Below, one piece after another: positions 2,202-64,000 of a stretch of 64,000 nt of DNA (within the stretch, counting starts at the first letter, position 1; each line of letters begins with the position of its first letter). Source of the DNA: a virus. The notes under the pieces were generated by a model. That model saw nothing but the letters and a program-made list of their open reading frames with translations. It did no database searches and was not told the origin of the DNA. The stretch covers positions 630-64,629 of IMG/VR virus record IMGVR_UViG_3300048858_000017, one strand, 5' to 3'. Both the position numbers and the translations under genes were made by a program.

Positions 2202-2888
2202 TCATCCCCTCCCGTCGCGGGCGAGCGCGCGGTCTATGGCGGCACGGAGTTGCGGCGGGTATTTCGACCCACGCTCCGGCTTCTTCCGTTCCGACTTAGT
2301 CGGGTTCGATACAGCGGCCACAGGGGCCTTCTTGCCCTTCTTTGGGGTGTCGGCCCGCTTCCGCTTCGGAGGGGGCGCAAGCACCGCGTCTAGGCCCTCG
2401 GTCTCGATGCGCTTCTCCAACCGGCGCTGACCCGGGGTGACCTCGTCGGGCAGCTGGGGAAGGGCCTCGACCGTGATCTCGGTGCGTTCCGGATAGCCGT
2501 AGCGTTTGGCGCTGTTCGGGTAGCCGCAGACCTGATTGTCGTCGATGTAAGCGATCCCCTTGAGGGCATCCTTGGCCTGTTTGACGATCTGGTCGAGGTC
2601 AGGGTCGGCGACGTGCATGACACGCGCCTCGCGCGCAGCCTTCTGTAGGGCCTTCGGCCAGCTGGGCGGGATTGCGAATATCGCCACGATCCTGACGATT
2701 ACGGGGCCGGTGAACGGCCGGCGCGACCCGAAGGCCTGCCGGGCCGCCCACGCGATCCGTTGCTTGCCCGCCTCGGCCTCCTTGTCGGTGAACCGCATGG
2801 CCTCGCCGGTGGTGGGGTTTATCCCCTGCCCCGGACGCTGCCAGCGCGACGGCTTCCCGTCGACCTTGAAGGTGACCCGGTCGGTCAC
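2202..2888 (-). CDS. rusA: RusA-family Holliday junction resolvase
   Basis: PDLDQIVKQAKDALKGIAYIDDNQV catalytic motif; GTG start overlaps the ACP stop (GTGA). Confidence 0.8.
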   Translation of the reverse strand: MTDRVTFKVDGKPSRWQRPGQGINPTTGEAMRFTDKEAEAGKQRIAWAARQAFGSRRPFTGPVIVRIVAIFAIPPSWPKALQKAAREARVMHVADPDLDQIVKQAKDALKGIAYIDDNQVCGYPNSAKRYGYPERTEITVEALPQLPDEVTPGQRRLEKRIETEGLDAVLAPPPKRKRADTPKKGKKAPVAAVSNPTKSERKKPERGSKYPPQLRAAIDRALARDGRG

Positions 2889-3130
2889 GCCAGCTTGCGC
2901 TCGACGAGGGCCTGCCAGTCGCCGACGGTTAAGCACTCTTCCGCCTCGACATCGCTGACGCTGATGTTGAAGGCCCCCTCTACCGCCATGGTGAGTTCGA
3001 CGCAGTCGAGGCTGTCGGCACCGAGATCGTCGGCAAGGTTCGCCGTGTCGGTGGCGTCAGCTGCGTCGACACTAAGATGGTCGACGATGATCTCGCGGAC
3101 CTGTTCGGCGCGCGCGGTGGTGTCAGGCAT
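2885..3130 (-). CDS. acpP: Acyl carrier protein (phage-encoded)
   Basis: 81 aa, acidic; VREIIVDHL...DDLGADSLDCVELTMAVEGAFNISVSD matches ACP with an intact phosphopantetheine Ser (DSL); SD GGAGGA. Confidence 0.9.
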   Translation of the reverse strand: MPDTTARAEQVREIIVDHLSVDAADATDTANLADDLGADSLDCVELTMAVEGAFNISVSDVEAEECLTVGDWQALVERKLA

Positions 3131-6898: not shown

Positions 6899-8332
6899 AT
6901 GCGCGTCAACGGACTTCGCATCGAGAATTACAAGCGGATCAAGGTCGTCGATATCACGCCCGAGGGCGGGGTCGTCACGATCGGGGGCAAGAACGACCAG
7001 GGCAAGTCGTCCCTGCTCGACGCGATCTTCACCGCCATCAAGGGCCGCAGCGCCAACGCGCCGGTGCCGGTTCGCGCTGGCGAGGAGAAGGCGACGATCC
7101 GGCTTGACCTCGGCGAACTGATCATCACCCGGTCGTTCATCGTCAAGGAGGGCAAGCCCTACACCGACACCCTCAAAGTCGAGCGCGCCAACGGCGACCG
7201 GCCCGGCAATCCGCAGGCGATCCTCGACGCCCTGCTGGGCGAGATCGGGTTCGACCCTTTCGAGTGGGCGCAGAAGAAGCCCAAGGATCAGGTTGCCCGC
7301 ATCCTCGAGATGGTCCCGCTGTCGGTCGATCTGGACGAACTCGCGGAGCAGGACACCAGCGACATCGCCAACCGCCGCGACGTGAACCGCGAGATCGCGG
7401 CGCTGCAGGGCCAGCTGCAGGGCATCCCCAAGGAGGACGTGCCGGCTGACTCCCCCGACCGCGACGCCTTGACCCAGCGTCTGGCGTCGGCGTCGGAGAC
7501 GAACACCGCCATCGCGACGGAGCGGGCGGCACGCGAGAGCCGCCGGGTGCAGATCGATGGTGCGATCGGCCGCCGGGACGAGAAGCGCGGCGAAGCCGAG
7601 GCGCTGCGTAATCGCGCGGCGGCTCTGGACGCCGAAGCCGACGACCTGAACACCAAAATCGTGGCCGCCGAGGAAGCGCTATCGGCGCTGCCCCCGCTCG
7701 ACGAGCCGGTCGACGCTACTGCGATCCAGACCGAACTCCGCGAGGCCGACGCGGTGCTGGCCCGGATCGAGCGCCAGAAGCGCCGCGCCGCGATCGAGGC
7801 GTCCCTGACCTCCAAGCAGGCCGAGTCCGAGGCGTTCACCACCGCCATCGCGGCCCGCGCGAAGAAGCGCACCGACGCGCTGGTCAAGGCCCCGATGCCG
7901 ATCGAAGGGCTGGGTATCAGCATCAACGACAAGGGCGAACCGTTCCTGACGTGGCAGGGCCTCCCCTTCGACAAGGACCAGATCAGCACGGCGGTGCAGC
8001 TGCGCGTCAGCACGGCGATCGGCATGGCCGCGAACCCGACCCTTCGGGTGCTGTCGATCAAGGACGGCTCCCTGCTCGACGAGGACTCGATGGCGATGCT
8101 GGCCCAGATGGCCGACACCGAGGACTTCCAGCTGTTCGTCGAGGTGGTCGGCACCGGCGGCGTCGGCATCATCATGGAGGACGGGCAAATCCGGGCCACA
8201 GAGGCCGCCACTGGCGCTGAGGCCCCGTCGGCCCAGGCAGAGGGCGGTGACGCTGTTGGAGACGAACAGGGGAACCCGACTAAGTCGAAGAAGGCGAAGG
8301 GTGCCGCCAAGCCGGAGGGGTCGCTGCTGTGA
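6899..8332 (+). CDS. SMC/Rad50-like AAA ATPase with coiled coil
   Basis: IENYKRIK, Walker A GKNDQGKSS, central coiled coil, C-terminal ISTAVQLR and IKDGSLLD. Confidence 0.8.
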   Translation: MRVNGLRIENYKRIKVVDITPEGGVVTIGGKNDQGKSSLLDAIFTAIKGRSANAPVPVRAGEEKATIRLDLGELIITRSFIVKEGKPYTDTLKVERANGDRPGNPQAILDALLGEIGFDPFEWAQKKPKDQVARILEMVPLSVDLDELAEQDTSDIANRRDVNREIAALQGQLQGIPKEDVPADSPDRDALTQRLASASETNTAIATERAARESRRVQIDGAIGRRDEKRGEAEALRNRAAALDAEADDLNTKIVAAEEALSALPPLDEPVDATAIQTELREADAVLARIERQKRRAAIEASLTSKQAESEAFTTAIAARAKKRTDALVKAPMPIEGLGISINDKGEPFLTWQGLPFDKDQISTAVQLRVSTAIGMAANPTLRVLSIKDGSLLDEDSMAMLAQMADTEDFQLFVEVVGTGGVGIIMEDGQIRATEAATGAEAPSAQAEGGDAVGDEQGNPTKSKKAKGAAKPEGSLL

Positions 8333-21147: not shown

Positions 21148-21210
21148 GGGAGCAACACGATCACAGGCCGATTCGGGAAACCCGAGGGGCCGCCCACCAC
21201 GGAGACGACC

Positions 21211-21513
21211 ATGACCCAGACCACCGCCACCGTCACGCTGCTCGCTGCGATCGGCCAGTTGGCCCATCAGGGCAAGTTCGCGCCCCTGACCGCCTCCGAC
21301 CGCCACGCCTTTTGCGAGGCCGCTGACGACGCGCAGATCGCGAGCGCCAGCCACACCGTCGCCTCGGCACTGTGCGATCTGACCGGCCGCTCGATCCTGA
21401 CCGAGGGCGATGCCGTCACGGTGATCGTCAGCGACCAGCGCGTCGAGGTCCACGCCGAGACCCCAGAGGGCGACAGCGTCTCGATCGCGTTCGACCTGCA
21501 GGTGGAGTGCTGA
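21211..21513 (+). CDS. Hypothetical protein
   Basis: SD GGAG; leader similar to that of 19995. Confidence 0.65.
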   Translation: MTQTTATVTLLAAIGQLAHQGKFAPLTASDRHAFCEAADDAQIASASHTVASALCDLTGRSILTEGDAVTVIVSDQRVEVHAETPEGDSVSIAFDLQVEC

Positions 21514-21722
21514 TCGGTGGCCCGCCTGACCGCAATCACCCGCCTCGCCATCGTGCTTGAAGCCGCCCGTCAAGATGGCGACCACCGCCGCGCCCAGCGC
21601 TGCCGCCGCGCCCTCCGCGCTCTCGGGGCCGCCTGACTGCCGCCACCTGACGGGCCGCGAGCCGACCCGTCTAGCGGCGACAGCCGGGGGCACCCGCCCC
21701 GCCACCACGAAGGAACACCACG

Positions 21723-49323: not shown

Positions 49324-49865
49324 TAGTCCCGGTCCTCGGCCAGCCAGCCCTCGCGGCAATAGTCCGCATAGCGCCCGTCGAGCGGCCGGCAGTCTCCGCT
49401 GATGCCGCTGACATACGCCCCGGCCGACCCGCCGTCATCGTCAGCGCCGGTGCAGACCAGCCCGGCCCCGAGCAGCTTGCGCCACAGCGCCATCGGGATC
49501 AGGGGACCGCCGTCAACCGGGGCGAAGAACTCGACCTGCGCCGATCCGGCCTTCGCGATCTTGACGTTGCTGCTTCCGCTGGCGTCGGCGAACAGGCGCG
49601 GCTTCGCCAGCAGGTCGGCCGCCAGCATGGCAGCGACCTCCTCAACCGCCGCCGGCAGTTCATCAGCCGCGGGATCGGGGACCTTGCCCTCACACCACGG
49701 CAGGTCGAGCATCAGCCGGGTCGCCGACACGATGCCGCGGCCCTTTGCGTCGGGCTGCCGCAGCGCCCAGCCGGCCGAACGAGCAACATCGCCGGCGAGA
49801 TAGATATCGGCGTTCTCCACCGTGGTCAGCGCGTCGAACTCGCGCTCCCCGATCGTCACCTTCAT
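49323..49865 (-). CDS. Head-tail adaptor (DnaT-like family)
   Basis: TVENADIYL...ATRLM...KAGSAQVEF. Confidence 0.65.
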   Translation of the reverse strand: MKVTIGEREFDALTTVENADIYLAGDVARSAGWALRQPDAKGRGIVSATRLMLDLPWCEGKVPDPAADELPAAVEEVAAMLAADLLAKPRLFADASGSSNVKIAKAGSAQVEFFAPVDGGPLIPMALWRKLLGAGLVCTGADDDGGSAGAYVSGISGDCRPLDGRYADYCREGWLAEDRD

Positions 49866-51418
49866 CGACGTGCCCTCCGCTTGGCGATCTTCGCCATGTT
49901 CCGCCGCGACCGCAGCACCTTGGCGACCTGCCTCACATCGGCATTGCCCTCGACGCTGCCGGCGGGGTCCGGCTTGTTGCCGGGCTGGTTGCGGTCGGGG
50001 TTCAGAGACAGGTCCATGTCGTCCTGCCGCTCCGGCGGCCGGGTCAGGCCGAGCAGGTCATACACCTCCCCGACGGCGGGATCGTCGGGCATCATCGGCG
50101 CGCCGGCGGTCGCGAGGTCCCTGAGCGCGGTCAGGACCTGCTCGATGTCGCGGTCGCTGATTTCGTTGACGCCCATCTCGGGCCGGAGGTGGTCGGGCCA
50201 CCCGTTCAGATCGGCGATCGGGGCGATGACATCGCGGTCGAGGACCTCGACCAGATCGAGCAGGGTGGAGGTGACCGTCAGGTAGAACGTCCCGACCTTC
50301 GACCGCGCCAGCGCAAGCGACCCGGCCCCATCGGCGCCCAGCAGCAGATGCTCGACGCCGAGGACGCGGGCGAGTTCTTGGTTCATGCGGTTCACCGCGT
50401 TCGCCATCGAGTCGAAGCTGGTCGACTCCCCGTTCAGCAGCTCCAGCGCCCACTTCGGGGTCGACGACACGGTGGTGCCCTTGTCGGAGGTCGTGCCGCT
50501 GAACGTGTCCGAGGGCAGCATCAGCCCGGTTTTCTTGTTGCGGACGTGCTTGTCGATGAAGTCGCGCAGGGGCCGCAGCATTGCACCGCGACGGGCCTCA
50601 GCCTTCTTGCGCTCCTCCGACCCGGCAACGCCGGCGTCCTCGACCTCCTTCTTCATTTCGCCCAGGGGAGCCCGCGCGACCGGGATGCCGCGCAGGTCGG
50701 TCGTGAACCCGACCTCCTCCAACTCGAGGAAAAGGCGCAGGCGGTCGGCGGTCTCGGCGAGGTGGCGATAGAGACCCATGCCCTCCGGGCTGTCGGTCAG
50801 GGTGTCGTCGACCGCATAGACGATCTTGGCCCGGGGCAGGGTGGCGTCCTGCAGGCCGGGGATGCGCTGCATGACGGCGATCACGGTGCCCGACGGATCA
50901 CGAAGCCAGCGTGCGATTGAGCGCTGGGGCCGATGCTCGATATCGAGCAGCCCGATCGCGCCGTCCTCCCGCTTCTTCGCGGTCCACTCCATGATCGAGA
51001 AGCCCTGCATCCGGTACATGGCGATCTTGCGGATCACCGACGACCACGGCGTCGTCATGTCGAAGAGCATGTCGTAGACCTGGTCGGCATAGGCCTGCGC
51101 GATCGGCTCCTCGTTTCCGTTCAGGCCCTCGGGCGGGTTCACCGTCCAGACGGCGTTCGCGATCAGGTTCAGGAAGAGGCGGACGCCGGCGGCGATGATC
51201 GAGGTGTCGCGCACCATGCGGTCGAACTCGTCGAATCGCGCCTGCCCGATCAGGTTCAGCTTCCGCTCCGGCGCGCCTGCGCTGTAGCCCTGCAGGTCGG
51301 ACGCGCTGCTGACGCTGGACCCGATGGTCTGCGTCGAGCCGTCGGCCTTTTCGATGACGTCGTCTTCCTCGCCGAGGATGGCGTCGCCTACGCGCGCCCA
51401 GAAGGTCTTGTCGGCCAA
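49862..51418 (-). CDS. Portal protein (DUF935-like)
   Basis: 518 aa after terL; YRMQGFSIMEW; GMGLYR. Confidence 0.85.
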   Translation of the reverse strand: MADKTFWARVGDAILGEEDDVIEKADGSTQTIGSSVSSASDLQGYSAGAPERKLNLIGQARFDEFDRMVRDTSIIAAGVRLFLNLIANAVWTVNPPEGLNGNEEPIAQAYADQVYDMLFDMTTPWSSVIRKIAMYRMQGFSIMEWTAKKREDGAIGLLDIEHRPQRSIARWLRDPSGTVIAVMQRIPGLQDATLPRAKIVYAVDDTLTDSPEGMGLYRHLAETADRLRLFLELEEVGFTTDLRGIPVARAPLGEMKKEVEDAGVAGSEERKKAEARRGAMLRPLRDFIDKHVRNKKTGLMLPSDTFSGTTSDKGTTVSSTPKWALELLNGESTSFDSMANAVNRMNQELARVLGVEHLLLGADGAGSLALARSKVGTFYLTVTSTLLDLVEVLDRDVIAPIADLNGWPDHLRPEMGVNEISDRDIEQVLTALRDLATAGAPMMPDDPAVGEVYDLLGLTRPPERQDDMDLSLNPDRNQPGNKPDPAGSVEGNADVRQVAKVLRSRRNMAKIAKRRARR

Positions 51419-51482
51419 CGCCCGGCTCCCTGTGCTGATCGGGGCCTGTCATATCGCAGGGGCGTGAAGCGGTCGAGTGAGG

Positions 51483-51559
51483 TGGTTGCGGGTGCCGGAT
51501 TCGAACCGGCGACCTAGAGGTTATGAGCCGCTCGCGCTACCAGACTGCGCCAACCCGCA
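51483..51559 (-). tRNA. tRNA with CAT anticodon (fMet-like scaffold, atypical identity elements)
   Basis: 77-nt cloverleaf, T-loop TTCGAAT, encoded CCA, anticodon loop CTCATAA. Confidence 0.93.
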
Positions 51560-51679
51560 GGGCCTGAATGGCAAACGGCCCGCCCCCGGTCAAGGGGACG
51601 GGCCGTACGGCCGGGGGAAGCGGGCTCCCCGGTCTACTTCCACCGCGTGCGGGTTGCCCCGGGCGCGGCAGCTATCCGG

Positions 51680-51934
51680 TCAGGTATTGCGCGCGGACGA
51701 GTAGCGCGGGACGCCGGCTTCGTGTCGGAGGCCCTGCTGGACATCGCGGGCTAGCGCGGTGCCGTCGATCGCGAGCGGGGTGTCGAAGCCATCGGCGGCG
51801 AGGCGCATCGGTTCGGGGGTGAACAGAGCGAAGGCGTCCCGCATGAAACCGCCGGCGAGACGGGCGAACGCGAGAATGGGCATCGCGAACAGCGACAGGA
51901 CGGTGAGGACGAGGGCGAAGCGGGAACGGCGCAT
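51680..51934 (-). CDS. Small protein with hydrophobic N-terminus
   Basis: SD GGAG; possible promoter TTGCCA upstream at about 51967-51973. Confidence 0.6.
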   Translation of the reverse strand: MRRSRFALVLTVLSLFAMPILAFARLAGGFMRDAFALFTPEPMRLAADGFDTPLAIDGTALARDVQQGLRHEAGVPRYSSARNT

Positions 51935-51997
51935 GACGATCTCCTATGCAGCGTGGCGAGGTGCCGGTGGCAAACCTGCGTCAGCGCGCCGGCCCGG

Positions 51998-53659
51998 TCA
52001 AGACGCTCCCCAAGGGTCCTCCTCTAGCCCGGCGTCCGCCTGCATGTCGGACAGGCGCTGCTCGTCACTGCCCGGCTCGACGACCTCGGGGCCGGCGTTC
52101 ATCGGGGCATCGACGCCACCGACCAGTTCGCCGAAGGCGCGCGAGGAGGCGTCGACCTGGTCCTTGAACGACCCCGCCGGGAAGTTCCGCAGTTCCTCCC
52201 GGTAGGCAGCGTTCCAGTCGCCCCTGACGAGGAACACCTTGCCGGCCCCGACCATGGCGGCGAACGGCTCCGCGCGCGTCTCCTTGTCGCCGCTCTCCGG
52301 CGTGATCGAGAAGTTCAGCCCAGCCAGCAGGTCGGCCCACGTCCACTTCACCACCTTGCCGGTCGCGCCGGGGTCCTGCGGCAGGCTGTGCACCATCGAT
52401 GCCCGGCCATAGTCGGCGGCATCAGCGTGCGTGACCGAGTCGACCATCGCGTTCAGTTCGGTCGGGTTGGTGCGGCGACGATCGACGTGCAGGATGTAGA
52501 AGTTGCCGTTGACCCGCTTCATCAGCACCCGGACGGTGTAGGGGCTGTTCTTCCGCTTGGACCCGGCAATATCCCAGCCGCCGACGACCTTGCCACCGCC
52601 CGGGGCCGCCTCGACCGTCTCGATCAGGTCGACCTTGAACATGCCGCCCTCGCGCGGGGCCGGGCGCTGCTGGTACTGACCGGCCCAGACATAGTCGCCG
52701 GCCTTCTTCTGGCGCGCGATGGCCGTGGGCGGCATCCGCACCGGGTCCATCAGTTCGCCCTCGTAGGAGCGTGGATCGGTCCAGTCGCGCTTGCTGCCGG
52801 TGCCGTCGTCGACCTGCAGCGGCGTGACGCAACGGCGCTCCTCCTCGAACTCCATCGGGATGCAGAGGTGGACGAAGCCCAGATCGCGGGCGAGTAGCGC
52901 GCCGGTCAGATCGTCCTGGTGGATGCGCTGCATGACGATGACCATGGCCGAGGTCTCGGCATCGTTCGTGCGGTTCAGGCCGCCCTCGACGAACTTGCGG
53001 ACGGTGGCGGTGCGCTGCTCCTCGCTCTCGGCACCGTCGACGCTGTGCGGATCGTCGATAATCACGACGTCGCCGCGCTTACCCGTGATCGAGGCGAAGG
53101 CGACACCCTCGCGGAAGCCGAAGTCCTTGTTCTCGAAACTGGTCTCGCCGGCACGCTTCAGCTTGCCCTCGTCATCGAACACCTCGGGCCAGAGTTCGCG
53201 ATACCAGTCCGACTGGATCAGATCGCGGGTCTTGCGGGTGTCGCGGGTGACGTTCTTCAAATCGAAGGAGGACGACACGAACCGGCTGGCGGTGTTCCCG
53301 TGCGGCCCCCAGACCCATGCCTGCCACATCACCGAGACGATCATCGACTTCGACGACCCGGGGGGCACGTTGATGATCAGCCAGGGCGTCAGCTGCCCGC
53401 GGGTGATCGCCTCCAAGTGATCACACATCGCCTGCAGATGCCACGACCATTTGAGCGGGTTCTTCGGTTCGAGGACGTGCCACGCCTCCTTCACGAACCC
53501 GGCGAGCGTGCGGCAGCGGGCGCGGATCGCGTCGGCCTGTTCCCGGGTACGCTGCAGGTCGGACGCGGCGATATCGTTCCGAAGCTGGGCACGAAGCGCG
53601 CGCAGCGCCCCGCGGTCCAGCGTCGCGATATCCGGCAGTTCAGTCGTCAGCGCCGGCAT
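51998..53659 (-). CDS. terL: Terminase large subunit
   Basis: Walker A INVPPGSSKS, Walker B VVIIDDPH, nuclease GWDIA and DQVDA. Confidence 0.95.
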   Translation of the reverse strand: MPALTTELPDIATLDRGALRALRAQLRNDIAASDLQRTREQADAIRARCRTLAGFVKEAWHVLEPKNPLKWSWHLQAMCDHLEAITRGQLTPWLIINVPPGSSKSMIVSVMWQAWVWGPHGNTASRFVSSSFDLKNVTRDTRKTRDLIQSDWYRELWPEVFDDEGKLKRAGETSFENKDFGFREGVAFASITGKRGDVVIIDDPHSVDGAESEEQRTATVRKFVEGGLNRTNDAETSAMVIVMQRIHQDDLTGALLARDLGFVHLCIPMEFEEERRCVTPLQVDDGTGSKRDWTDPRSYEGELMDPVRMPPTAIARQKKAGDYVWAGQYQQRPAPREGGMFKVDLIETVEAAPGGGKVVGGWDIAGSKRKNSPYTVRVLMKRVNGNFYILHVDRRRTNPTELNAMVDSVTHADAADYGRASMVHSLPQDPGATGKVVKWTWADLLAGLNFSITPESGDKETRAEPFAAMVGAGKVFLVRGDWNAAYREELRNFPAGSFKDQVDASSRAFGELVGGVDAPMNAGPEVVEPGSDEQRLSDMQADAGLEEDPWGAS

Positions 53660-54209
53660 CGTCCTCGCCGCTTTCGATCAGCTGGTCGAGGACGGGCAGC
53701 AGCGCCCGCTTCTCGTCCTCCGACAGCTTGGACAGGTCGAAGCTGGCGTGCCGGATCGGGCCGCCGTCCTTGCCGGTCATCTCGACCTTGGTCGTCCAGC
53801 CGCCGAGCCGGGCGAGGATGAACTTCTGGGCGTCGAGGTCGCCCTTCGCCAGCGGCTTGCCGTCAGGGCCGGCGGCCTCCGCGTTCATCGCCCGGTTGAC
53901 GACCTGCGCGCCGACGGCGGCCAGCATCTCGGCGCGGCCGAGGTCCATCTCCTCGCGGAGGTGGCGCTGCAGGGTGCGGGTGCTGACGCCGATCAGGCGC
54001 GCGATCATGTGTTCGGCGTGGGGCGGGAAGACCTTGGCGTATTCCCTGACCTTCTTCCGTTGCTCGTCGGTGGCCTCGAACGGCGGGTTGCCGATCCGGC
54101 CCCCGTGGGGGGGCGTGATGACGCCGGCCCCCTTGGGGGTCCCCCGGGCGTCATCGTCCCGGGTTTTGGCGTTCGGCGCTGTGGCGGTCTGTTGGGGCTC
54201 TTCCGGCAT
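53640..54209 (-). CDS. terS: Terminase small subunit
   Basis: HTH IARLIGVSTRTL; FILARLGGW; KVEMTGKDGGPI; precedes terL. Confidence 0.85.
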   Translation of the reverse strand: MPEEPQQTATAPNAKTRDDDARGTPKGAGVITPPHGGRIGNPPFEATDEQRKKVREYAKVFPPHAEHMIARLIGVSTRTLQRHLREEMDLGRAEMLAAVGAQVVNRAMNAEAAGPDGKPLAKGDLDAQKFILARLGGWTTKVEMTGKDGGPIRHASFDLSKLSEDEKRALLPVLDQLIESGEDDAGADD

Positions 54210-54273
54210 CCCACCATAATAGGGGGCCGCCAGAGGGCGGTCGAGTCCTGTGGCGGCCCTGTGGCAATCCGAC

Positions 54274-54711
54274 TTATGCGCGAAGCGCTTCGGTCGCCTC
54301 GGCAAGGACGGCGGGGGTCGGCGTCCAGAACAGCGGCGCGACAGTGCCGGCGCACGCGATGAAGGGGATCGGCCGGGGATTGCGGAGGACGAGGCCGCAG
54401 GGACCCATCCACCATGGACTGTCGCTTTCGCGCACGGCGTCGACGATCTCGACAGCACCGACGATACCGCCGCGCTGCATCTCCTCGAACGACGGGAACG
54501 GCACGTAGCGAGCATCGGTCTTGCCGACCGCCATCGTGATGAACGAGTGGGCGTGCCGATACTCTTCCTGCGTCAGCCCGGCCGAAGCGTGGATCAGCGT
54601 CAGACCGCGGTGACCGAGTCGGCGCGTCCGGTTCTCGATGTCCTTGCCGAGGTGGGTGATCGCGAACGCCCATGGCTGGCGGACGGAGAGGGCGAGGAGA
54701 GGCGCGGTCAT
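54274..54711 (-). CDS. ASCH-domain protein
   Basis: ALSVRQPWA...GKDIENR...LIHAS signature. Confidence 0.9.
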   Translation of the reverse strand: MTAPLLALSVRQPWAFAITHLGKDIENRTRRLGHRGLTLIHASAGLTQEEYRHAHSFITMAVGKTDARYVPFPSFEEMQRGGIVGAVEIVDAVRESDSPWWMGPCGLVLRNPRPIPFIACAGTVAPLFWTPTPAVLAEATEALRA

Positions 54712-54720
54712 GTCGCGGCC

Positions 54721-55386
54721 CTACTCCCCGCCCCGGGAGGTGACAATCTTGAACCGTTCCGCGATCCGGTCGGCCCCGGCCGTCAGCTGTGGCAGATCGG
54801 GACGGTCGGCCGGTGGGCGATCCCACGATGGCTCCCATGTGGCGCAGGCCTCGTCCTGCGGCACCCGGACCAGCCGGCCCGCGTCCAGGTCGGCGAGCGC
54901 GGCGACGAGGAGGCGGACCCCCATCGGGAACAGGCTGTCGCGCCAGAGGTCCGAGGCCGTGGTGCCCGGCCGAACATGCAACCAGTCGGCCGCCGCGATC
55001 GGGCCGCCGTCAACGCGCGGGCCGAGCCAGTAGATCGAGCCGCCGGCGATCGGGTCGCCCATGTGCACGGTCCACTTCACCGCGTCCCGGCCCCTGTGAC
55101 GGGGCAGCAGGGACGGGTGGTAGCCGATGCCCCCTAGCAGGGTGCGCGACAGGGCGCGGTCGCTGACGATGACGTGGGCGTGGGCGCAGACGATCAGGTC
55201 CAGCCCCTCGGGCAGATCATCGGCTGTCAGGCGGGCGGCGCTGGTCGGGATATCGAGGCGGCGGGCCTCCCAGTCGAGGCGGTCGCCGAGCGGGGCGAAC
55301 ACCGCGACCACATCGTGCCCGGCCTCCACGATCGCGCGCAGCGCCGCGGCCCCGAAACTCCGCTGCCCCACCAGTGCAATCCTCAT
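54721..55386 (-). CDS. 10-formyl-THF-dependent formyltransferase-fold protein (ALDH1L1 N-domain-like)
   Basis: RIALVGQ...GHDVVAVF; YHPSLLPRHRG; VDGGPI; LFPMG; ATGA-coupled to the GNAT gene. Confidence 0.9.
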   Translation of the reverse strand: MRIALVGQRSFGAAALRAIVEAGHDVVAVFAPLGDRLDWEARRLDIPTSAARLTADDLPEGLDLIVCAHAHVIVSDRALSRTLLGGIGYHPSLLPRHRGRDAVKWTVHMGDPIAGGSIYWLGPRVDGGPIAAADWLHVRPGTTASDLWRDSLFPMGVRLLVAALADLDAGRLVRVPQDEACATWEPSWDRPPADRPDLPQLTAGADRIAERFKIVTSRGGE

Positions 55387-56582
55387 GCCGGTGCCTTCTC
55401 CGCTGCCTTGCGGGCGGCCCACGCCTCCCCGCGATATTTAAACCCTTGGACGGCCCTGAAATGCCCCCCGTACCCTGCAACCCCCGTCTCGAAATTGCCC
55501 TCGATCAAGCGGGCGCTGTCCGTGGTGCGGGCCGACTTTTTGAGCGACTTCACCGAGGTGGCGCGCCGGTTGCCATGCAGGACCGCGCTGACCTGCTCCC
55601 ACCGGGGGTCACGGCGCAACGCGGCGCAGAGGCCCGGGTGGGAGGTGTGGAAGAACCCGCACTTGACCCGGTCGCCGAACTGCCCCTGACCGCTGACCTC
55701 GCGCTCCATGACCCAGTTCAGGAACTTCATGCCGACGCCCGCCCCCTGCCACTCCGGCATGATGACCATGCGGCAGCCGCGGACGCCGCCGGTGTTGAGG
55801 CGGGGCGCGATCCCGAGGTGGGCCACCGGCTCCCCGTCGACGAACGCGACGAAGTAGCGGCAGGCCACCATGCGGGGCAGCTTCAGATAGTGATGCGGCT
55901 CAAAGAGGTCCCAGTAGGAGCCGTCGACCTGCCGAATTTCAAGTTCGATAGGAGGGCGTCGTCGAAGACGCCTCCCTGCGGCATCCCGCTCGAACACGCC
56001 CGTAGCCGTGTCAAAAATCCAGTCCGGTTCCAGCCAGTCGAGGACGTCGTAATGGCAGGACAGCAGCACGGCCTTCCCGCTGGTGCGCCGCCACGCCTTC
56101 TGGAACGCGAGCGCCCCGATCTTGGCGATCTGGCGGTCGACGACGGACGTGAACTCGTCGATGACCACTGCGGCCGGCTCCTCAGCGACGATGCGGGCCA
56201 GTTCGGCGCGGAACTTCTCGCCGTTCGACAGGACCCCATAGGGGCGCAGCCACGACGGGACCGACCCCAGCCCGACCGCTGACAGCGCGGCGGTGACGGC
56301 GTTGAAGTCGCCCCCGGGCGCGATGGCGTCCACGATCGGGGCGTCGTCGGGCCACTCCCCACCCGTCCACAGCGCGCCTTCCCCGAGGATCGACTTGCCG
56401 AGCGATGTCTTGCCAGAGCCGGAGGGTCCGACGACGACCCCGACCTTCCAGCCGTCGTCATCGATGTCAAGGTCGGCGTCCAGATCGAACGCCTGCCCCG
56501 ACTCGGCGTTGAACAGGCTCTGCACCCGGGCAGCGCGATAGCTGGCGTAGTGCGGGCAACGGTTACGGATTTCGATATGCAT
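55383..56582 (-). CDS. ABC-type ATPase fused to Mom-like GNAT acyltransferase
   Basis: Walker A GPSGSGKT, signature LSNGE, Walker B VVIDEF; FEPHHYL and RMVIMPEWQGAGVG (GNAT motif A). Confidence 0.88.
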   Translation of the reverse strand: MHIEIRNRCPHYASYRAARVQSLFNAESGQAFDLDADLDIDDDGWKVGVVVGPSGSGKTSLGKSILGEGALWTGGEWPDDAPIVDAIAPGGDFNAVTAALSAVGLGSVPSWLRPYGVLSNGEKFRAELARIVAEEPAAVVIDEFTSVVDRQIAKIGALAFQKAWRRTSGKAVLLSCHYDVLDWLEPDWIFDTATGVFERDAAGRRLRRRPPIELEIRQVDGSYWDLFEPHHYLKLPRMVACRYFVAFVDGEPVAHLGIAPRLNTGGVRGCRMVIMPEWQGAGVGMKFLNWVMEREVSGQGQFGDRVKCGFFHTSHPGLCAALRRDPRWEQVSAVLHGNRRATSVKSLKKSARTTDSARLIEGNFETGVAGYGGHFRAVQGFKYRGEAWAARKAAEKAPA

Positions 56583-56616
56583 GCGGCCTCCGGGTCGGCG
56601 ACATACCCCAGATGCG

Positions 56617-56651
56617 AAAGACCCGCCAGCCCGGGGCGGGGCTGGCGGGTC
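56617..56651 (-). terminator. Perfect 12-bp hairpin (attenuator/terminator-like) upstream of the GNAT gene
   Basis: GACCCGCCAGCC/GGCTGGCGGGTC followed by TTT on the minus strand. Confidence 0.5.
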
Positions 56652-56713
56652 CATCAGGGAGGTGCCTGACGTCGGGGGGGTGACGCCGGGCGACTCGTGT
56701 CATAGCACCGGGG

Positions 56714-57355
56714 TCAGACGACCACCACCTTGACGTTGTCGGCCCCATAGGTCTGGCGCAGGGCGTTGAAGCAGGCCTCCTGTGCCGCCTCGTCGGCGCA
56801 GCGGACGATGACGGCGAACTGGTCGACATGCTCATAGGTGCTGTCGGCATCGGTGCCCTGCCCGCGGGCCTTTGCCGGGGCCTCCCCTTCCTCGGGGGTG
56901 CCGATCAGCTGCTCGATCGCGTCGGCACCGAACCCGAGCGGGGCCATGTCGAAGTCGACGCCGGCGAGCGCGTCCAGTTCCCCAGTCAGGATGCCGATAT
57001 CCCACCCGGCGTTCTCGGCGATGCGGTTGTCGGCGAGCGCATAGGCCCGGCGCTCCTCCTCGGTCCAGCCGGTGCAGTCGATCACCGGCATCGTGCCGTC
57101 GGGGATCATGTGGCCGCCGCGCTCCTTGCCGGGGGCCATGTAGATGCGCTCGCCCGCGGCGTAGATCAGCTGCGCGGCGCGCTGCCTGCCATGCCCGGCG
57201 CGGATCAGTTCGTCGGCGAGAGCAGGGGCGGTCCAGCCGAAGCGGCGGATCGAAGTAGCGATCTCCTCGACCTGCGCGTCGCTATGCGTCCGGGCATTGC
57301 GGGGGTCGGGGACCAGGTCGTCGACCTTGCGGAACTGAATGGTGGGCTTCGGCAT
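56714..57355 (-). CDS. ParB/Srx-like N-terminal domain protein
   Basis: DLVPDPRNARTHSDAQVEEIATSIRRFGW...AGHGR...YALADNRIAE. Confidence 0.88.
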   Translation of the reverse strand: MPKPTIQFRKVDDLVPDPRNARTHSDAQVEEIATSIRRFGWTAPALADELIRAGHGRQRAAQLIYAAGERIYMAPGKERGGHMIPDGTMPVIDCTGWTEEERRAYALADNRIAENAGWDIGILTGELDALAGVDFDMAPLGFGADAIEQLIGTPEEGEAPAKARGQGTDADSTYEHVDQFAVIVRCADEAAQEACFNALRQTYGADNVKVVVV

Positions 57356-60300
57356 CAGGTCGGCGTCCTCTCGGCGATGTATGCGGCCAGCCGTTCCCCG
57401 GCGTCAGGAACGCGGAGGAAGGCGAGCAGGTGGGTGTTCAGTTCGAGGTCGTGGGCGTCGCATAGCGCGTACCAGCCGAGCCGGCCGATAGCACAGGGCC
57501 GGAGCGACCACTGCGCCGTCGCCGGGGCACCGCAGTGCACGCAGCTGACGCGGCGCAGTCCCGCGACGGTGTAGGGCTTCGTCCTCACCGGACCCAGCCC
57601 TCCCGCCGGGCCAGATCATCGCAGCGCTCGATGCAGGCCGCGATCACGGTGGCGAAGCTGTCATCGTTCAGAACGGCCTCGCAGTAGCAGCGGCGACCGC
57701 CCCCGTGTGGATAGATCGCGTCGACGCGGGCGGCCGGCTTGCCGGAGGCATCAGTGATCCGGCGAGCGGCATAGACCGGCTCGGCGTCCTCCGGCGGGGC
57801 CTCGGCCTGCAGATGGACGACGGGGTGTTCGTGCCCGGCGATGCCGAGGACCAGCTTGCCCCCGCCCAGTTGCAGCAGGGCCTCGGTCTGGTCGAGTTCC
57901 CATGCCGACCGCATGTAGTGGATGCCGCCCATGATCTCGCGGCGAATGAAGAGGCCGCCGCAGTGGCCGTGCTTTTCGGGGTCCCAGTCGCGGGGCGCAC
58001 CCAGAGGCTTGGGGTCTGCCCCCTCGATCCTGACGGTTCTCATGAGACGCCGGCATACCGCCGCGCCGGCCCGCGCGCTAGAGGACGGCGCGTCCGATCG
58101 GGCCGACGGCACTGTCGAGGAGGCGGGCCAGCGCCCGGAGCGTCAGGATCGGGTTCGCCCCGAAATGCCGCTGGACCTGACCGTAGGGGTCGGGGTCGCC
58201 CGTCATCAGCCAGCGCTGCAACCGGTTGACCAGATGCTCCTCGTCCTGTTGCTCCTGCGGGGCATCGCACAGCGGCACGTCGCCGTTGCCGTCGTGGATT
58301 GCGTAGCTGAACGGCTGGCCGATCGCATCAGCGACGAAGTGGTGGGTCAGGTCATGCTCGGTGATGTAGCGCCACCAGTCGGAGCCGTAACCCATCTCGC
58401 GCGCGGCGGCCCCGCCATCGCTGGGGTCATGGACCCACATCTGGTTCGTGACGCCGTCGGCGAATACGGAGGTGTTCACCCCCTGCCCCAGCACCATCAC
58501 GGCGGTGCTGAACTGAACCGCGCGCGGGGTCATCGCCGTCCCCGCCGGCCAGCCCGGCGCAGGCCCCGCGGGATGCGGTATGTAATCACCGAGCCGTCCC
58601 CGCATCGCATCACCATGTCGTCAGGAATCGGGATCGGGTCGTTGCGCAGCGCCTCGATCTCGTCGGCCTCTCGCTTGGCGCGAAAGCAGGGGCCGCAGAA
58701 GTCGCCGGGCTTCCACCGGGCCGCGACCCTGTGGCCGGCCTCGCAGACTTTGACCGCGGTCTTGGGGATGGTGCGGGGCTTAGGTCCCGCCGTCTTCGTC
58801 GTCGCCATCAGCGGAGAGCAGCACGAGCGGCTCTAGCGCGTCAAGCGCGGTGGTGATCCAGATGTTCTCGTAGCCGGTGCGAACAGACCAGGCGGTATTC
58901 GCCCAGGCTGATCCTTTTCGGTCGAGTTGGCGGGCAAAGGCCTCGCGGGCCAGTTCTCGGGCGCGTGTCACGGCCGGCGCTCTACCACTGGGTCGATATC
59001 CCCGTCGAGGCCGAGGTCGCGCATCAGGTTCCGCATCGGCGTCGCCCGCAGGCGCGCCTCTTCCGGCGTCAGCAGGCCCCGGTTCCACTGGTCGATCAGC
59101 ATCCCGCGCTCGTCGACGAACTCGCGGATGCGGGCGGTCTGCTCCGGTGTGGCCGGCCAGTAGCCTTGCGGGGCCAGACCGCGGATCGGGTAGCCGATCT
59201 TCGTCCCTGTCATGCCGTTGCCGGTGATCCAGCGCAGGCCGACCATGTCACCCTTGATCGGGTCGGTCTGGCCCGCGACCGGGTCAAACCAGCGGTCGGT
59301 GCACAGCGCCAGCGTGACGTAGCGCCGGGTGGTGACCACCTCGCGGGTGTCGTCGTTCGCCACCGGGGGCAGGCCGGCAAGGCGCAGCGGCTGTTCATAG
59401 CGAACGCTGTGCGACTTGCCCTTGAGGATCAGGCCGTCGCCCACCTTGAGGTCGGGGAAGCGGAGGGCGCGAGCCGGCTTGCGCTTCGGCTTTCGCTCGG
59501 CCTGGACGAACCGCGTGCCCTCGGCGTCATGGATGACCGTCCACCCGGGCTGACCGTAGCGGGGGTCGCGCTCCCACCACCACGTCATAGCAGCGATCCC
59601 TGCTTCTGTGGTGCCTGATCCCGGGCGGCCGGTGCCGGCGAGGCCAGTAAGGTGTCATCCGGCAGAGGCGAGGCAAGCTTGTCGCAGGGGCCGCACCTCC
59701 ACGGGGTGCCGGGCTTGCCGCCGTCTTGGCTGAACGTTGGATGCCGCTTGCCGCAGTCGGCGCAACGGGCCGGTTTCCACGACTTCATACGGGGTGCCGG
59801 CATCACGCCTGCTCGACATCATGCCAGCGTCCCCGGCGGTCGATGTCACGGATCGCCCACCCCGGGAACTCGGTCGTTATGACCACGCTGACGCCATCAA
59901 TCTCCGGGTTGGTCTCGTCTCGAAGTGACTTCTGATCGGCATATATCGCGACCAGAGCGGAGGCACCGACCAGGACCGCACGCTCGCGCCCTCGGGGCGG
60001 TGGACAGGCAGCATTGAGCGCGGCGCGTATCTCGGTCATTGCGGTCACAGGCCTGCCCTCCTCAGTTCCTCTTCCAGCCCCGGCGGCAGCCCGGGGCTAT
60101 CGCCGATCCGGTCCCCGGCAGCAATGCGGACGCATCGCACCCAGATCAGCTGCAGCAGCCGTTCCGTCCTGACGATCGCGATGCGCTGTGGCGAGCCGGG
60201 CGGCAGTTCCCAGAACGACTGCACCCGGGCCTTGCGGAGGCGGCGCTTCCACAGCCGGGTCACCGCGGAGCGCCGGGTCTTGAGGGCGCGAGGCACCCGA

Positions 60301-62760
60301 GGCCAGTGGGTGCCGCAGAGCCAGCCCGGGTCGTTCGTGCCGGTGTTCAGCCAGCGCCATTCCGGGCGGTTCTCGATCGTGGTGGTGCTCCTGTGGCAGC
60401 CGGCGACGGCGCAGCTGACGCGGGGGTGGCCGCTACCCACGGGCCGCACCACAAGCCGGACACTTCGGCACCGTGAGACGCGCATGATCGAGCGTGCAGC
60501 GGTGCGCCTCGGCCATCCGCACCGCCTCGGCGCGGTCGGCATCCTCCATCATCTCGGCCGCCTCGGTGTAGGCCTCGGCAAGGCAGGTCAGGACGCCGGT
60601 AGGGTCGCCCATCTGCTCGGCCCGGTTGCCGATCGTCTCGCCGAGGATGCGGGCCGCCCGGGCATGGTCGGTCAGGGCCATCACCGATCCCAGTCGGTCA
60701 GGGCTTGTCGGCCGAGGTCGGTTATCACCCATCGGGAGGGGTCCGGCTGCTTAGACGCGACCCGGATCAGGCGGGCACGCAGGGCGGCGGCGCGGACGGG
60801 GGTGTCGACAGCGGTGATAGGTTCCCCGGCTTCCTCGCCGAGGCTGACCTCGCGAAGCAGCAGGCCGACGTCATGTGCGATCATGCGGCGTCCTCGCCAT
60901 GCGCACCCCGGGCGGCTGCAAAAGCCTCGAGAAAAGTCAGGCCATAGCCGAGCGCGTCCTTGGTCTCGTCGGGCGGGCGCAGGTCGAGGGCTCCCCGGGG
61001 CAGCCGGACGAGGTAGGGCTTGGGGCAGTTCGGGTTGTGCTGCACGGCATAGGTGAGCCCGTCGGCGACGCTGCTGTCGCGCAGGCCCCTGTCATAGCCG
61101 ACCTGCTCGGCCGCGATCAGTGCCGCGGCATGCCGCGACCCGACCGCCTGCCACGTCCGCAGGGCCTCCGCGTTCTCGTCGTGCAGGGCGCAGGTCGCCT
61201 TGAACAGCGCCTCCTCGGTATCGCGCAGCGCCTTGAGCAGTCCGCCCTCGGCACCCTTGATCCGGCAGGCCGGCTCGCAGTCCTCGTCGACTCCGAAGTG
61301 GGCGGCGGCGGCGCGGCGGTCGGTGAACGTCTCGTCGCAGAAGTAGCACCGCCACTCCGGGGGCCGTTCAGCATTGACCTTGCCTGCGTCGAGCAGGGCC
61401 TCCCCGATGCGGTCGATGTTGAACGTGCCGTCGAGCGTGACGCGATCGGTGCCGAGGTCGGTGTCGACCCACCCGATATCGCCCTTGTTGTCGTCGCTGT
61501 TCAGCTGCGCGCGCATCTCGGTCACGATGACCGCCGCGATCTGTTCCTGTGGGGTCATATCCAGTTCTCCCGTTCGGCTTGAGCGATCAGCCGGTCTCGT
61601 ATGGTGGCGGTCGACGCGCCTTTTTCCAGCGCCTCCAAGGTGCGCGAGACGGATGCTATCAGATCGTCGAGGCGGGCAGCCAGGTCGGCCGGAACCTCAG
61701 CCGTGCTTGCAGTCAGCACCGGCGCGATACGCCTAGCGGCATCCCCGATAGCGTCAGGCCGGCGCATGTAAGGCGACAGCATAGCCAGCACCTCGTCCGG
61801 GGTAGGCCTAAGCCAGAACGCCGACGGCACGTCATGCCAGAGCCGGCGATGCTCCCGCTCCCAGATGCTCACAGCGCTCTGCGCTCAAGGGCACGCCGCA
61901 GGGCCGCGGCATGGGCGAAAGACGGGGACCAGCTGCGCATCGCCGCCCGCAGTTGTGCCTCCCGGCGGGGGACACTCCGCATAGCGTCACCGTAGGACTG
62001 CAGGGCGGCGAAAGCGTCAGGCCGAAAGGTCATCACGCCCGGGGCGGTGTAGCCGCCATCCCTGACGCCCCACCCGAAGCGGTTGAGCAGCTTGCGGATC
62101 ACGGACAGCACCTTGGGGAGCCACCGCAATAGGCCATGTCCTGGTCGAAGTCCTCCGGCTCGCACTCGGCCGGCATTGCGCGCTCGCATACGCGGCACTC
62201 ACACATGAGCACGCCGTCGCGCTCCCATAGGCCCTCGGGAAGTTCCGGCGGGGGCGGGACGTATATTACCGGCCGGCCGCGCATGACGGGAGCGGGCACG
62301 GTCACGTCTGCCGGCCAGCACCCAAGCGTGGCGCAACGCGGGCACTTGGCGGCCTTGAGCGTCGGACCCCGCCCGGTCCATCCATGTCGAACAAACACGC
62401 TGGCGGCATCCTCGTCGCTGATCTGATCCCACGGCTCGATCGCCGATCCGGCAATGACCTGCGACTGGGGGCAACGGGTACATTCAAGCCAGATACCCCG
62501 AGGGCCTCCGAAGGCGTTGCCTGCGGTGGCGACGGCGTAGGACTGGCGGGCGAGCGTGGCGGCGGCGAGCGTGGCCGTGATCTGCTCCGGCGTGATCATG
62601 ACCGGCTGTCCCACCAGCGGCTGACTCGGGTCGACAGGACGGCCAACACATCATCCGCGATGCCGCGGCCGAGGCCCCAGCCGAAGCCGACCGCGCCCGC
62701 GATCCACGCGATGTTCGCGGTCTGGTGCCATGTCAGGTGTTCAAGCATCGCGCCCCTCCC
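57355..62760 (-). other. Dense cluster of about 15 small hypothetical ORFs, several Cys/Zn-rich
   Basis: Chain of overlapping minus-strand ORFs, e.g. 57355-57588, 58530-58808, 58968-59588, 59803-60048, 60881-61558, 61555-61872. Confidence 0.65.
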
Positions 62761-63433
62761 GTGCGGGCTGGAGGGCGGCGTAGGCGTCGCACGCCGATTG
62801 TTCCTGCTCTGCAAAGTCTCCCTTGGCGTACCCATCAGGATATCCAGCCGTTAGGATGCCTGCCTTGAACCCAGCCCTAAAGGCCTCCCGCCCCGCCTGT
62901 TGCGAGGCGCGCGGCATCGCGGCGAGGGCGGACACCACATCTCGAAAGAGAAAGCGATGCCCGGAAAGCCAAGCGCTGATCCCACGGTTGGCGAGTGCCT
63001 CGCCGATCAAACGATCAACCTCTTGGTCAGGCCCGCTGAGTTCGTCATACGGCAAGAGCCAGCTCGGCTTGCAATTTGGCTGAGCAGCGGCCCACTTGAC
63101 CCAAACCTCGCGCACCAGTCGGCCGAGGCTGTCACGGCTGGATCGACGATCCCGCGGATCATCAAGGGCGGCTTGTAGCGCCTCGCGCAGCCGCTCGACA
63201 TCCCCCGCCCCCTGCGCCTCTGCGGGCTGGGTGGCGCGGGTGTTCCACGCCTTAGCCGCATCTCCGGTCAGGCCGAAGGCGGTTTGATACTCTCCCGCGC
63301 TCGTATCGCATTCTTGGCAAAAGACTTGGCCGACCGACGATCCGGCCTCGCAAGGCACGAACGCAGCCTGCCCGCCACAAAACGGGCACGGCTTCAGCAC
63401 TTCCACCGCGCTTTCGGGTTGTTCGGAGGTCAT
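62741..63433 (-). CDS. Lar-family restriction-alleviation domain protein with C-terminal extension
   Basis: LKPCPFCGG...VFCQEC...AAKAWNTRA. Confidence 0.7.
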   Translation of the reverse strand: MTSEQPESAVEVLKPCPFCGGQAAFVPCEAGSSVGQVFCQECDTSAGEYQTAFGLTGDAAKAWNTRATQPAEAQGAGDVERLREALQAALDDPRDRRSSRDSLGRLVREVWVKWAAAQPNCKPSWLLPYDELSGPDQEVDRLIGEALANRGISAWLSGHRFLFRDVVSALAAMPRASQQAGREAFRAGFKAGILTAGYPDGYAKGDFAEQEQSACDAYAALQPAREGRDA

Positions 63434-63588
63434 CGTGCGGGGTCCTCATCTGGGGAGTGCAGAAGCTGAGCCCGCAACTCCGGATTGCAGGGTTCGCCGT
63501 TGCAGCAGGTGGTGCAATGCTCGGCGTAGATGCCGATTGCGATCAGGCCGAGGATGATCGCGAGGCCAGCGCAGACGAATGCTTTCAT
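63430..63588 (-). CDS. Small membrane protein with Cys-rich tail
   Basis: Manual ORF MKAFVCAGLAIILGLIAIGIYAEHCTTCCNGEPC; flanked by 17-bp direct repeats. Confidence 0.6.
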   Translation of the reverse strand: MKAFVCAGLAIILGLIAIGIYAEHCTTCCNGEPCNPELRAQLLHSPDEDPAR

Positions 63589-63833
63589 CGTGCGGGGTCC
63601 TTGGGTTGGAGGTGGGCGCGGACCTGAAGGCCGAGATTGGAAAGATAGCTGCTCGTGATACAGGCGGTCTTTCGCTCGGTAAGAAGCCCTGCGTCCTCAA
63701 GCTCTTTCCAGACGGGCTGGGCGGTCATGAACGAAACCCTAGTCCCGCCTGAAACCATCTTTGTGCTGCTGCGGACTGCATCGGCTGCTGGGGCGCTGAG
63801 AGTGTCCGCGATCTTCTCGACCTCGCTCATTGC
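63585..63833 (-). CDS. Hypothetical protein
   Basis: Packed ORF; ATGA overlap with the next gene. Confidence 0.55.
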   Translation of the reverse strand, partial: AMSEVEKIADTLSAPAADAVRSSTKMVSGGTRVSFMTAQPVWKELEDAGLLTERKTACITSSYLSNLGLQVRAHLQPKDPAR

Positions 63834-64000
63834 GGGCATCAACCACACCCCGATTCGAAGGCCTCGCGCGGCGACATCGGCTGCCCGGTCGCAGAATTGC
63901 GGGGCGGCTGCGCCTGCTGGAGCGAGAACTCACCAGATGCGATCCGGGCGGCCCCGGCAGCGACACGGCGTTCGTTGTGCGGGCCGTCCGCCATGCTGTT

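Follow-up and report, generated by a model that had tools for sequence, protein, structure and literature searches.

A phage cassette of adaptor domain, ABC-ATPase::GNAT fusion and short formyltransferase: a candidate system for the acylation of phage DNA

INTRODUCTION

Mom of phage Mu is a GNAT-fold enzyme that modifies N6 of adenine in double-stranded DNA, under translational control by Com. TmcA and NAT10 combine an ATPase with a GNAT domain and make N4-acetylcytidine in RNA with acetyl-CoA, and in 10-formyl-tetrahydrofolate dehydrogenase (ALDH1L1) the N-terminal domain passes a formyl group to a phosphopantetheine thiol. For Mom, Gly-tRNAGly has been shown to be the donor in DNA modification (PMC13219725), and experiments have demonstrated that phage thymine dioxygenases are activated on DNA by ParB homologues (PMC13229309). 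Closest to the present subject is a phage ABC-ATPase and GNAT system (PHROG 11143) predicted computationally by Iyer, Zhang, Burroughs and Aravind, and cited as reference 136 in Iyer et al. 2021 (Viruses 13:63, PMC7824862). Here we analyse what, going by that citation, is the same system, with the same fused protein in the same phage setting, in a stretch of 64,000 nucleotides of IMG/VR virus record IMGVR_UViG_3300048858_000017 (‘the window’). Its gene lies between a ParB-like gene and a short formyltransferase gene, followed by a gene for an ASCH-fold protein and by the terminase genes. We propose, with a probability of about 0.55, that this cassette attaches acyl groups covalently to bases of the phage's own DNA, late in infection and ahead of packaging, probably so as to evade host restriction.

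The original prediction, made from the letters of the window, had read these four genes as a multi-step system in which ParB targets DNA, the ATPase/GNAT and the formyltransferase write a base with a formyl or acyl group, and ASCH reads or erases it. It had also taken the system to be uncharacterised. That holds in so far as we found no experimental characterisation of the ABC-ATPase::GNAT system in the literature searched, but the gene family and its predicted role are, as cited in the review above, already in print as a computational prediction.

RESULTS

A three-part unit conserved in unrelated phages

In the window, seven minus-strand genes stand in a row and code for the ParB-like protein, the ABC-ATPase::GNAT fusion (hereafter ABC-GNAT), the formyltransferase, the ASCH-fold protein, the small and large terminase subunits and the portal. 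The minus-strand open reading frames (ORFs) upstream of terS and terL thus confirm that four consecutive co-oriented genes directly precede the terminase, and the names first given to their products agree with Pfam and PHROG, in the case of ASCH through homologues and structure. We then fetched 80 genomic and 80 viral loci (designated by L numbers below) and scanned the ORFs in them with profiles built on the window proteins.

The ParB-like protein (56714-57355, minus strand, 213 residues) consists of a ParB/Srx-type N-terminal domain (ParB-N, residues 1 to ~170) and, at residues ~175-213, an adaptor mini-domain (56717-56833, minus strand). It was assigned from its PHROG matches (phrog_620, E 1.8e-37; phrog_498, E 5e-38; phrog_15396, E 3.9e-30); the Pfam ParB_N match is weak (E 0.24). 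The adaptor, of ~35 residues, has the consensus Y..QYGVIV.C.DE..Q..VY..L....G....KVV.V. With a hidden Markov model (HMM) seeded from the window segment, it was found directly upstream of ABC-GNAT in 77 of the 80 genomic and 76 of the 80 viral loci, that is 153/160. Of the genomic loci, 51 encode it as a protein of its own, ~50-70 residues long, and 26 as a fusion with ParB-N; in the viral set, 42 of the 65 loci that reach far enough upstream have ParB-N. ParB is therefore a member of the cassette in this phage, as had been proposed, but the constant partner is the adaptor, which stands alone in most loci. As judged from the HMM matches, the near-constant upstream partner of ABC-GNAT is this domain and not ParB as such.

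On the other side, a formyltransferase gene follows ABC-GNAT in 65 of the 80 genomic loci and in 63 of the 66 viral loci that extend far enough downstream. Since the same order is found in 160 loci of unrelated phages, the arrangement of the first three genes is far beyond chance, a statement limited to those three. By these profile searches, the conserved unit is one of three parts, adaptor, ABC-GNAT and formyltransferase, and ASCH is an occasional companion. No further gene family was common to more than about a dozen of the cassette neighbourhoods. The flanks are of two kinds, with either terminase genes of varied families 0.5-2 kb downstream or Mu-type baseplate and tail genes upstream.

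The unit is also widespread. ABC-GNAT has more than 7,000 relatives at E <= 1e-10 and is 54-65% identical across loci of at least ten bacterial phyla, among them Planctomycetota, Chloroflexi, Bacteroidota, Firmicutes, Actinobacteria, Verrucomicrobia, Spirochaetes and all classes of Proteobacteria. It is present in cultured phages of Burkholderia, Pseudomonas, Gordonia, Porphyromonas and Streptococcus as well.

Additional genes were seen at some loci. In a related phage of ~66 kb, the coupled genes of ABC-GNAT and formyltransferase are parted by an Endonuclease VII gene (PF02945; L172:5229-5654, plus strand), probably a mobile insertion of the homing type. In an Eubacteriales prophage, a Mu-F-like head protein fused to a papain-fold glutamine deamidase toxin domain (PF15644) is encoded downstream of the cassette (L039:11312-12949, plus strand).

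Gene context points to DNA as the target

The N-terminus of gp7 of Erythrobacter phage ZS04 and residues 4-171 of the ParB-like protein share 62% identity (E 3e-67). In gp7, an 812-residue protein (L084:8718-11156, minus strand), ParB-N is followed by an N6_N4 DNA methylase domain and a pyridoxal phosphate (PLP)-enzyme domain (PALP). The same ParB head is thus linked in one phage to a DNA methylase and in the other to the adaptor with ABC-GNAT and formyltransferase, and the window protein resembles the ParB-N::DNA methyltransferase fusions of phrog_498 in general. The cassette was not seen in the stretches of ZS04 and of the related phage R6L fetched upstream of terS, and neither the 30 ABC-GNAT matches listed nor the tally of organisms by name included an Erythrobacter phage. 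The fusion of a PLP domain to a DNA methylase in gp7 is unusual; from its domain composition, gp7 may be another DNA hypermodification enzyme.

A similar partnership is found in the ParB-dependent phage thymine dioxygenases (5mYOX and ParB; PNAS 2026, PMC13229309), where a ParB N-domain protein accompanies a DNA-modifying enzyme. Compared with the dioxygenase and methylase systems, the partner in the window is a predicted ATP-dependent acyltransferase with a formyltransferase, and ParB is dispensable in most cassettes, in which only the adaptor tail is kept.

The stand-alone adaptor has a different neighbour. A homologue of the zinc-ribbon protein Com (PF10122, E 1.4e-14) is encoded immediately upstream of it in 24 of the 80 genomic and 17 of the 65 viral loci, and these loci come after Mu-type tail genes, which is the position of com-mom in Mu. 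Com and ParB-N forms of the cassette are mutually exclusive, with an overlap of 0 in both the genomic and the viral set. In line with this, the Com HMM gave no match in window positions 50001-64000, where ParB-N is found in place of Com. The cassette of Burkholderia phage phiE255 also occupies this slot: a tail fibre assembly gene is followed by an unannotated Com-like ORF (L001:3536-3904, plus strand; 21170-21538 of the phage record) and by gp28-gp29-gp30, which are adaptor, ABC-GNAT and formyltransferase. This order mirrors com-mom of Mu, and the ORF resembles Mu Com in a pairwise BLASTP comparison (E 2e-4).

The cassette and Mom share, besides the Com-controlled slot at these loci, the GNAT fold, late expression and a presumed anti-restriction role. 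They differ in composition, Mom being a single enzyme using Gly-tRNAGly (PMC13219725), to which the cassette would add an ABC ATPase, the adaptor and a formyltransferase. Both the swap of the ParB module with a methylase and the place of the cassette in the com-mom slot speak for DNA as the target. They favour, at the level of gene context, the proposal of a nucleic-acid modification module with ParB as its DNA-targeting partner. A further observation to be counted for DNA comes from a Bacteroidales locus, where an N6_N4 DNA methylase gene (E 1.8e-52; L064:7578-8597, plus strand) lies directly 3′ of the formyltransferase gene.

The ABC-ATPase::GNAT protein

ABC-GNAT (55383-56582, minus strand) is a single polypeptide of 399 residues with an ABC domain at residues ~1-200 and a GNAT domain at ~200-399. 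The conserved start is MHIEI; a longer ORF from 56654 is unsupported by homologues, and it is on this long ORF that phrog_11143 matches residues 25-411 (E 6e-143). Pfam families matched are ABC_tran, AAA_16, AAA_22 and Acetyltransf_1/7 only. Alignment of 24 homologues showed invariance of the Walker A motif GPSGSGK[TS], the signature LSNGE, the Walker B DE with its catalytic Glu, the D-loop, the H-loop His and the GNAT motif A QGAGVG (in PEWQGAGVG); IDEF and HHYL are invariant in the family too. All motifs quoted in the original prediction are present, and those of ABC-GNAT are invariant in the family. With every ATPase motif invariant, ATP-dependent dimerisation and hydrolysis are expected.

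The ABC fold was recovered against solved structures (Foldseek E 5e-8). The full-length AF2 model is moderate (pLDDT 69.6) and its fold search is dominated by the ABC domain; modelled alone (pLDDT 82), the GNAT domain gives Z 11-13 against dozens of acetyl-CoA enzymes, with many families tied. On this model it is a canonical acyl-CoA GNAT fold with no special closeness to any one enzyme. The QxxGxG motif (QGAGVG) sits at beta4-alpha3, the position that binds the CoA pyrophosphate in acyl-CoA GNATs, and Mom is without such a motif at that place.

Two assignments of the original prediction were not upheld. Membership of the Mom family was rejected: hhalign of the ABC-GNAT alignment against Mu Mom gave a probability of 0.1 (E 0.64), so that the GNAT is not Mom-like by sequence, and the Mom family was absent among the Pfam matches at E <= 0.01. 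The likeness to TmcA/NAT10, in which a GNAT joined to an NTPase domain acylates the exocyclic amine of a base, would be one of analogy. Membership was rejected here as well, the ATPase being of ABC type with, by Pfam, no RecD-like helicase, DUF1726, GNAT_acetyltr_2 or tRNA-binding domain; the context of the cassette, moreover, points to DNA.

The fold leaves room for targets other than nucleic acid. The GNAT could act on a virion, packaging or host protein, as phiKMV Rac acetylates RNA polymerase, or on a polyamine co-packaged with DNA. The closest solved GNATs are in fact the spermidine acetyltransferase SpeG, the protein acetyltransferase HP0935, RimI and the Naa enzymes, the cassette stands immediately before terminase genes in many loci, and a very high cross-phylum conservation suits any universal substrate. 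We nonetheless hold a protein or small-molecule target to be improbable. The fold matches are generic, being tied among many families, and such a target leaves unexplained why the adaptor is joined to a ParB N-domain that a DNA methylase also has, why the cassette is expressed under Com control in the mom slot, and why it has an ABC ATPase module with no transporter partner.

The formyltransferase and the question of tRNA

The formyltransferase (54721-55386, minus strand; 221 residues) is short, with an N-domain only. Its start overlaps the ABC-GNAT stop in an ATGA at 55383-55386, as had been noted, and this coupling, along with the recurrence of the gene after ABC-GNAT, suggests that the two proteins work together. 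It belongs to the Formyl_trans_N superfamily by its domain match (PF00551, E 4.5e-16; phrog_9240, E 6e-49) and its catalytic His and Asp. Among solved proteins its best relative is the N-terminal domain of 10-formyl-tetrahydrofolate dehydrogenase (E 7.8e-23), with which it shares an identical YHPSLLPRHRG motif; Fmt comes second (E 8.8e-14).

Catalytic His90 is kept in 65 of 67 family members and Asp126 in 66. At position 88, two residues before the His, PurN, Fmt and ArnA carry a catalytic Asn; the 67 sequences have Gly in 47 cases and Ile in 7, never Asn. The active site would thus be of the 10-formyl-tetrahydrofolate-dehydrogenase type, as in the N-domain of ALDH1L1 (PDB 2bw0, 1s3i), which has the same motif and catalytic His and Asp and lacks the Asn of PurN, Fmt and ArnA. 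The phage protein differs from ALDH1L1 in being a stand-alone enzyme, with no Formyl_trans_C subdomain, carrier domain or aldehyde dehydrogenase domain. An identity as Fmt was rejected: TIGR00460, although the top NCBIfam match, scored 55 bits against a cutoff of 201.5, Formyl_trans_C is missing and position 88 is not Asn.

This bears on whether tRNA, which the original prediction had allowed as a target, takes part. The cassette might N-acetylate tRNA in an ATP-driven reaction like that of TmcA, or transfer an aminoacyl group from charged tRNA as Mom does, with an Fmt-like formyltransferase formylating the alpha-amine, and a phage tRNA-Met(CAT) could be involved. Both the donor of Mom (PMC13219725) and the place of Fmt as second-best relative and of TIGR00460 as top NCBIfam match are compatible with this. 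A tRNA-Met(CAT) gene is indeed present in the window at 51483-51559 (minus strand), where it separates terL from portal within the operon of the cassette, and in the Oscillospiraceae locus L061 another (7707-7782, plus strand) begins right after the formyltransferase gene. As a general link of the cassette, however, the operon tRNA-Met(CAT) was rejected, as any tRNA gene within 6 kb was found in only 4 of 60 cassette loci (2 Met, 2 Arg), the other 56 having none. CAT accounts for three of the five tRNA genes near cassettes when the window and the 60 loci are taken together. The enzymes speak the same way: the formyltransferase is without the C-terminal tRNA-binding domain of Fmt and scores far below the fmt cutoff, the GNAT has an invariant CoA-type motif, and the ATPase is not of the TmcA helicase type. 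With the methylase swap and the Com context favouring DNA, a tRNA-based activity is unlikely, and tRNA as target is a weak proposal.

The ASCH-fold protein, an occasional companion

The last of the four genes (54274-54711, minus strand) codes for a protein of 145 residues that matches phrog_3193 (E 1e-36) and has no direct Pfam match. PF04266 is found in many homologues at ~50% identity, and two homologues bear the name ASCH at NCBI. The Atlas places it at TM 0.87 to an ASCH cluster, and its only PDB family match is the ASCH domain of TRIP4/ASC-1 (E 0.015). It is on these grounds a member of the ASCH/PUA-like fold family. The QPWA...GKDIENR motif is present, GKDIENR corresponding to the TRIP4-like K..E.R motif. 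YqfB (PDB 1TE7) was not among the PDB sequence matches at E <= 1.

An ASCH profile built from 120 homologues was used on the genomic and viral loci. Only three of the 80 genomic loci (L048, L054 and L056, from planctomycete or anammox bacteria) have ASCH right after the formyltransferase; in the 80 viral loci none adjoins the cassette, the sole match being 5 kb off and on the opposite strand. Of the four-gene synteny first proposed, the part that recurs in unrelated phages is therefore adaptor, ABC-GNAT and formyltransferase, and ASCH is not part of it.

That all four genes nonetheless form one obligate system of writer and reader or eraser has some points in its favour. ASCH begins 9 nucleotides after the formyltransferase on the same strand, with no terminator between them. 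The clade of the window's phage keeps this order (seen in L172), with many contigs carrying both proteins, and the order recurs in the three planctomycete/anammox loci. In Streptococcus pyogenes prophage 315.4 an ASCH gene again follows the cassette (ParB, ABC/GNAT, ASCH, terminase), with no detectable sequence similarity to the window ASCH. Binding of modified bases has been described for ASCH folds, and YqfB is given as an N4-acylcytosine amidohydrolase (PMC12707154). Yet ASCH is absent from this place in 77 of the 80 genomic loci, homologues ~50% identical to it are found in cassette-free phage regions, including one upstream of a terS, and within the clade it evolves much faster (~57-68% identity) than ABC-GNAT (80-90%). 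An obligate four-gene system is in our view quite improbable. The association recurs but is rare, and the link of ASCH to the cassette is uncertain.

Genome setting

The source record is a complete virus genome of 67,605 bp with direct terminal repeats, and the window covers its bases 630-64629. Among public runs, that of the source soil metagenome alone contains this DNA, as contigs only. Downstream of the cassette lie terS (53640-54209, minus strand, ATG at 54209; phrog_309, E 1.8e-7), terL (51998-53659, minus strand; Terminase_6C, E 1.7e-14) and the portal gene (49862-51418, minus strand). The packaging genes (terL, portal) are ~75% identical at the nucleotide level to those of the Erythrobacter siphophages ZS04 and vB_EliS_R6L. 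No minus-strand terminator-like site was found inside the block from cassette to packaging genes.

Between the stop of the ParB/adaptor gene and the start of ABC-GNAT there is a spacer of 131 nucleotides (56583-56713, minus strand), which holds a GC-rich hairpin-like stretch (CCAGCC...GGCTGG) and a GGAGG ribosome-binding site of its own. Unlike this gap, the end of the adaptor ORF coincides with the start of ABC-GNAT in most genomic loci, which suggests an ATGA-type overlap there.

Upstream of the ParB gene, whose start it overlaps with its stop (TGATG), is a gene for a Cys-rich protein of 77 residues (CxxC...C...CxxH; 57355-57588, minus strand) with no Pfam or PHROG match. It was considered as a Com analogue and rejected: the Com HMM does not match it and it was not found beside any other cassette. 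Further along, a protein of 230 residues (62741-63433, minus strand) has an N-terminal Lar restriction-alleviation domain (PF14354, E 8.6e-10); judging from this domain, it would be a second anti-restriction function, transcribed in the same direction as the cassette. In the early region, a phage acyl carrier protein (ACP) with a DSLD motif is encoded at 2885-3130 (minus strand). We rejected it as a formyl or acyl carrier for the cassette. The same ACP is found in ZS04 and R6L, where no cassette was seen, so that it belongs to the backbone of the lineage independently of the cassette, and no cassette-bearing phage was among the ACP matches.

DISCUSSION

A proposed scheme for DNA acylation

We infer DNA as the substrate, and with it a donor, a chemistry and a biological role, as follows. 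The adaptor domain would dock ABC-GNAT, and the ParB N-domain fused to it here would bring the complex to DNA. The ABC domain would dimerise on ATP and clamp or scan the DNA, as non-transporter ABC ATPases do, and the GNAT domain would move an acyl group from acyl-CoA to the exocyclic amine of a base. The formyltransferase would supply or finish the group from 10-formyl-tetrahydrofolate. Most economically, it would load formyl onto CoA and the GNAT would use the resulting formyl-CoA; alternatively, it might N-formylate an amine previously installed by the GNAT. The part of ASCH would not go beyond reading or erasing the mark in certain lineages. The most likely product is an acyl mark on phage DNA, perhaps formyl.

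A more specific version is that the mark is an N-formyl or formyl-capped acyl group on a DNA base. A formyltransferase like 10-formyl-tetrahydrofolate dehydrogenase would pass formyl from 10-formyl-tetrahydrofolate to the thiol of CoA, and the ATP-driven ABC-GNAT would use this formyl-CoA on DNA, with ASCH as dedicated reader or eraser in the clade. We regard this version as doubtful.

Several points weigh against acylation of DNA, or against formyl as its chemistry. The formyltransferase is lacking in 15 of the 80 genomic loci and in prophage 315.4, so formyl cannot be the sole chemistry, and these loci (~1 in 5) must make do with acetyl or some other acyl group. Small ORFs or terminase genes directly follow ABC-GNAT in them; a Pfam search of sampled genes for a replacement enzyme returned only small terminase, peptidase, ABC transporter or no match. 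We know of no enzyme that makes formyl-CoA from 10-formyl-tetrahydrofolate. The closest structural neighbours of the GNAT are generic, namely polyamine, protein and small-molecule acetyltransferases. Acyl groups attached at N6 of adenine are reported to lack chemical stability (PMC13219725). The prediction of a complex between the adaptor (ParB residues 165-213) and ABC-GNAT had a score of 0.00 and counts neither way on binding.

Significance

An identity of 54-65% across phyla is unusually strong conservation for a phage gene without a measured function. The cassette is present in cultured phages (phiE255, the Gordonia Sourvirus phage Sisko and other Gordonia phages, Komp_PAO1_1) and is for this reason directly testable at the bench. 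To what was predicted before, the window adds negative results for links to tRNA and to ACP, and a lineage that, like few others, has kept ASCH next to the cassette. It also adds a natural experiment, in which sister phages with a shared packaging backbone carry the same ParB N-domain with either a methylase or the cassette. If the formyl version held, it would bring a new DNA modification chemistry together with a new route to formyl-CoA. More generally, an acyl or formyl mark on DNA would, if true, be a new chemistry among phage DNA modifications, and possibly a new anti-restriction mechanism and a source of a tool enzyme.

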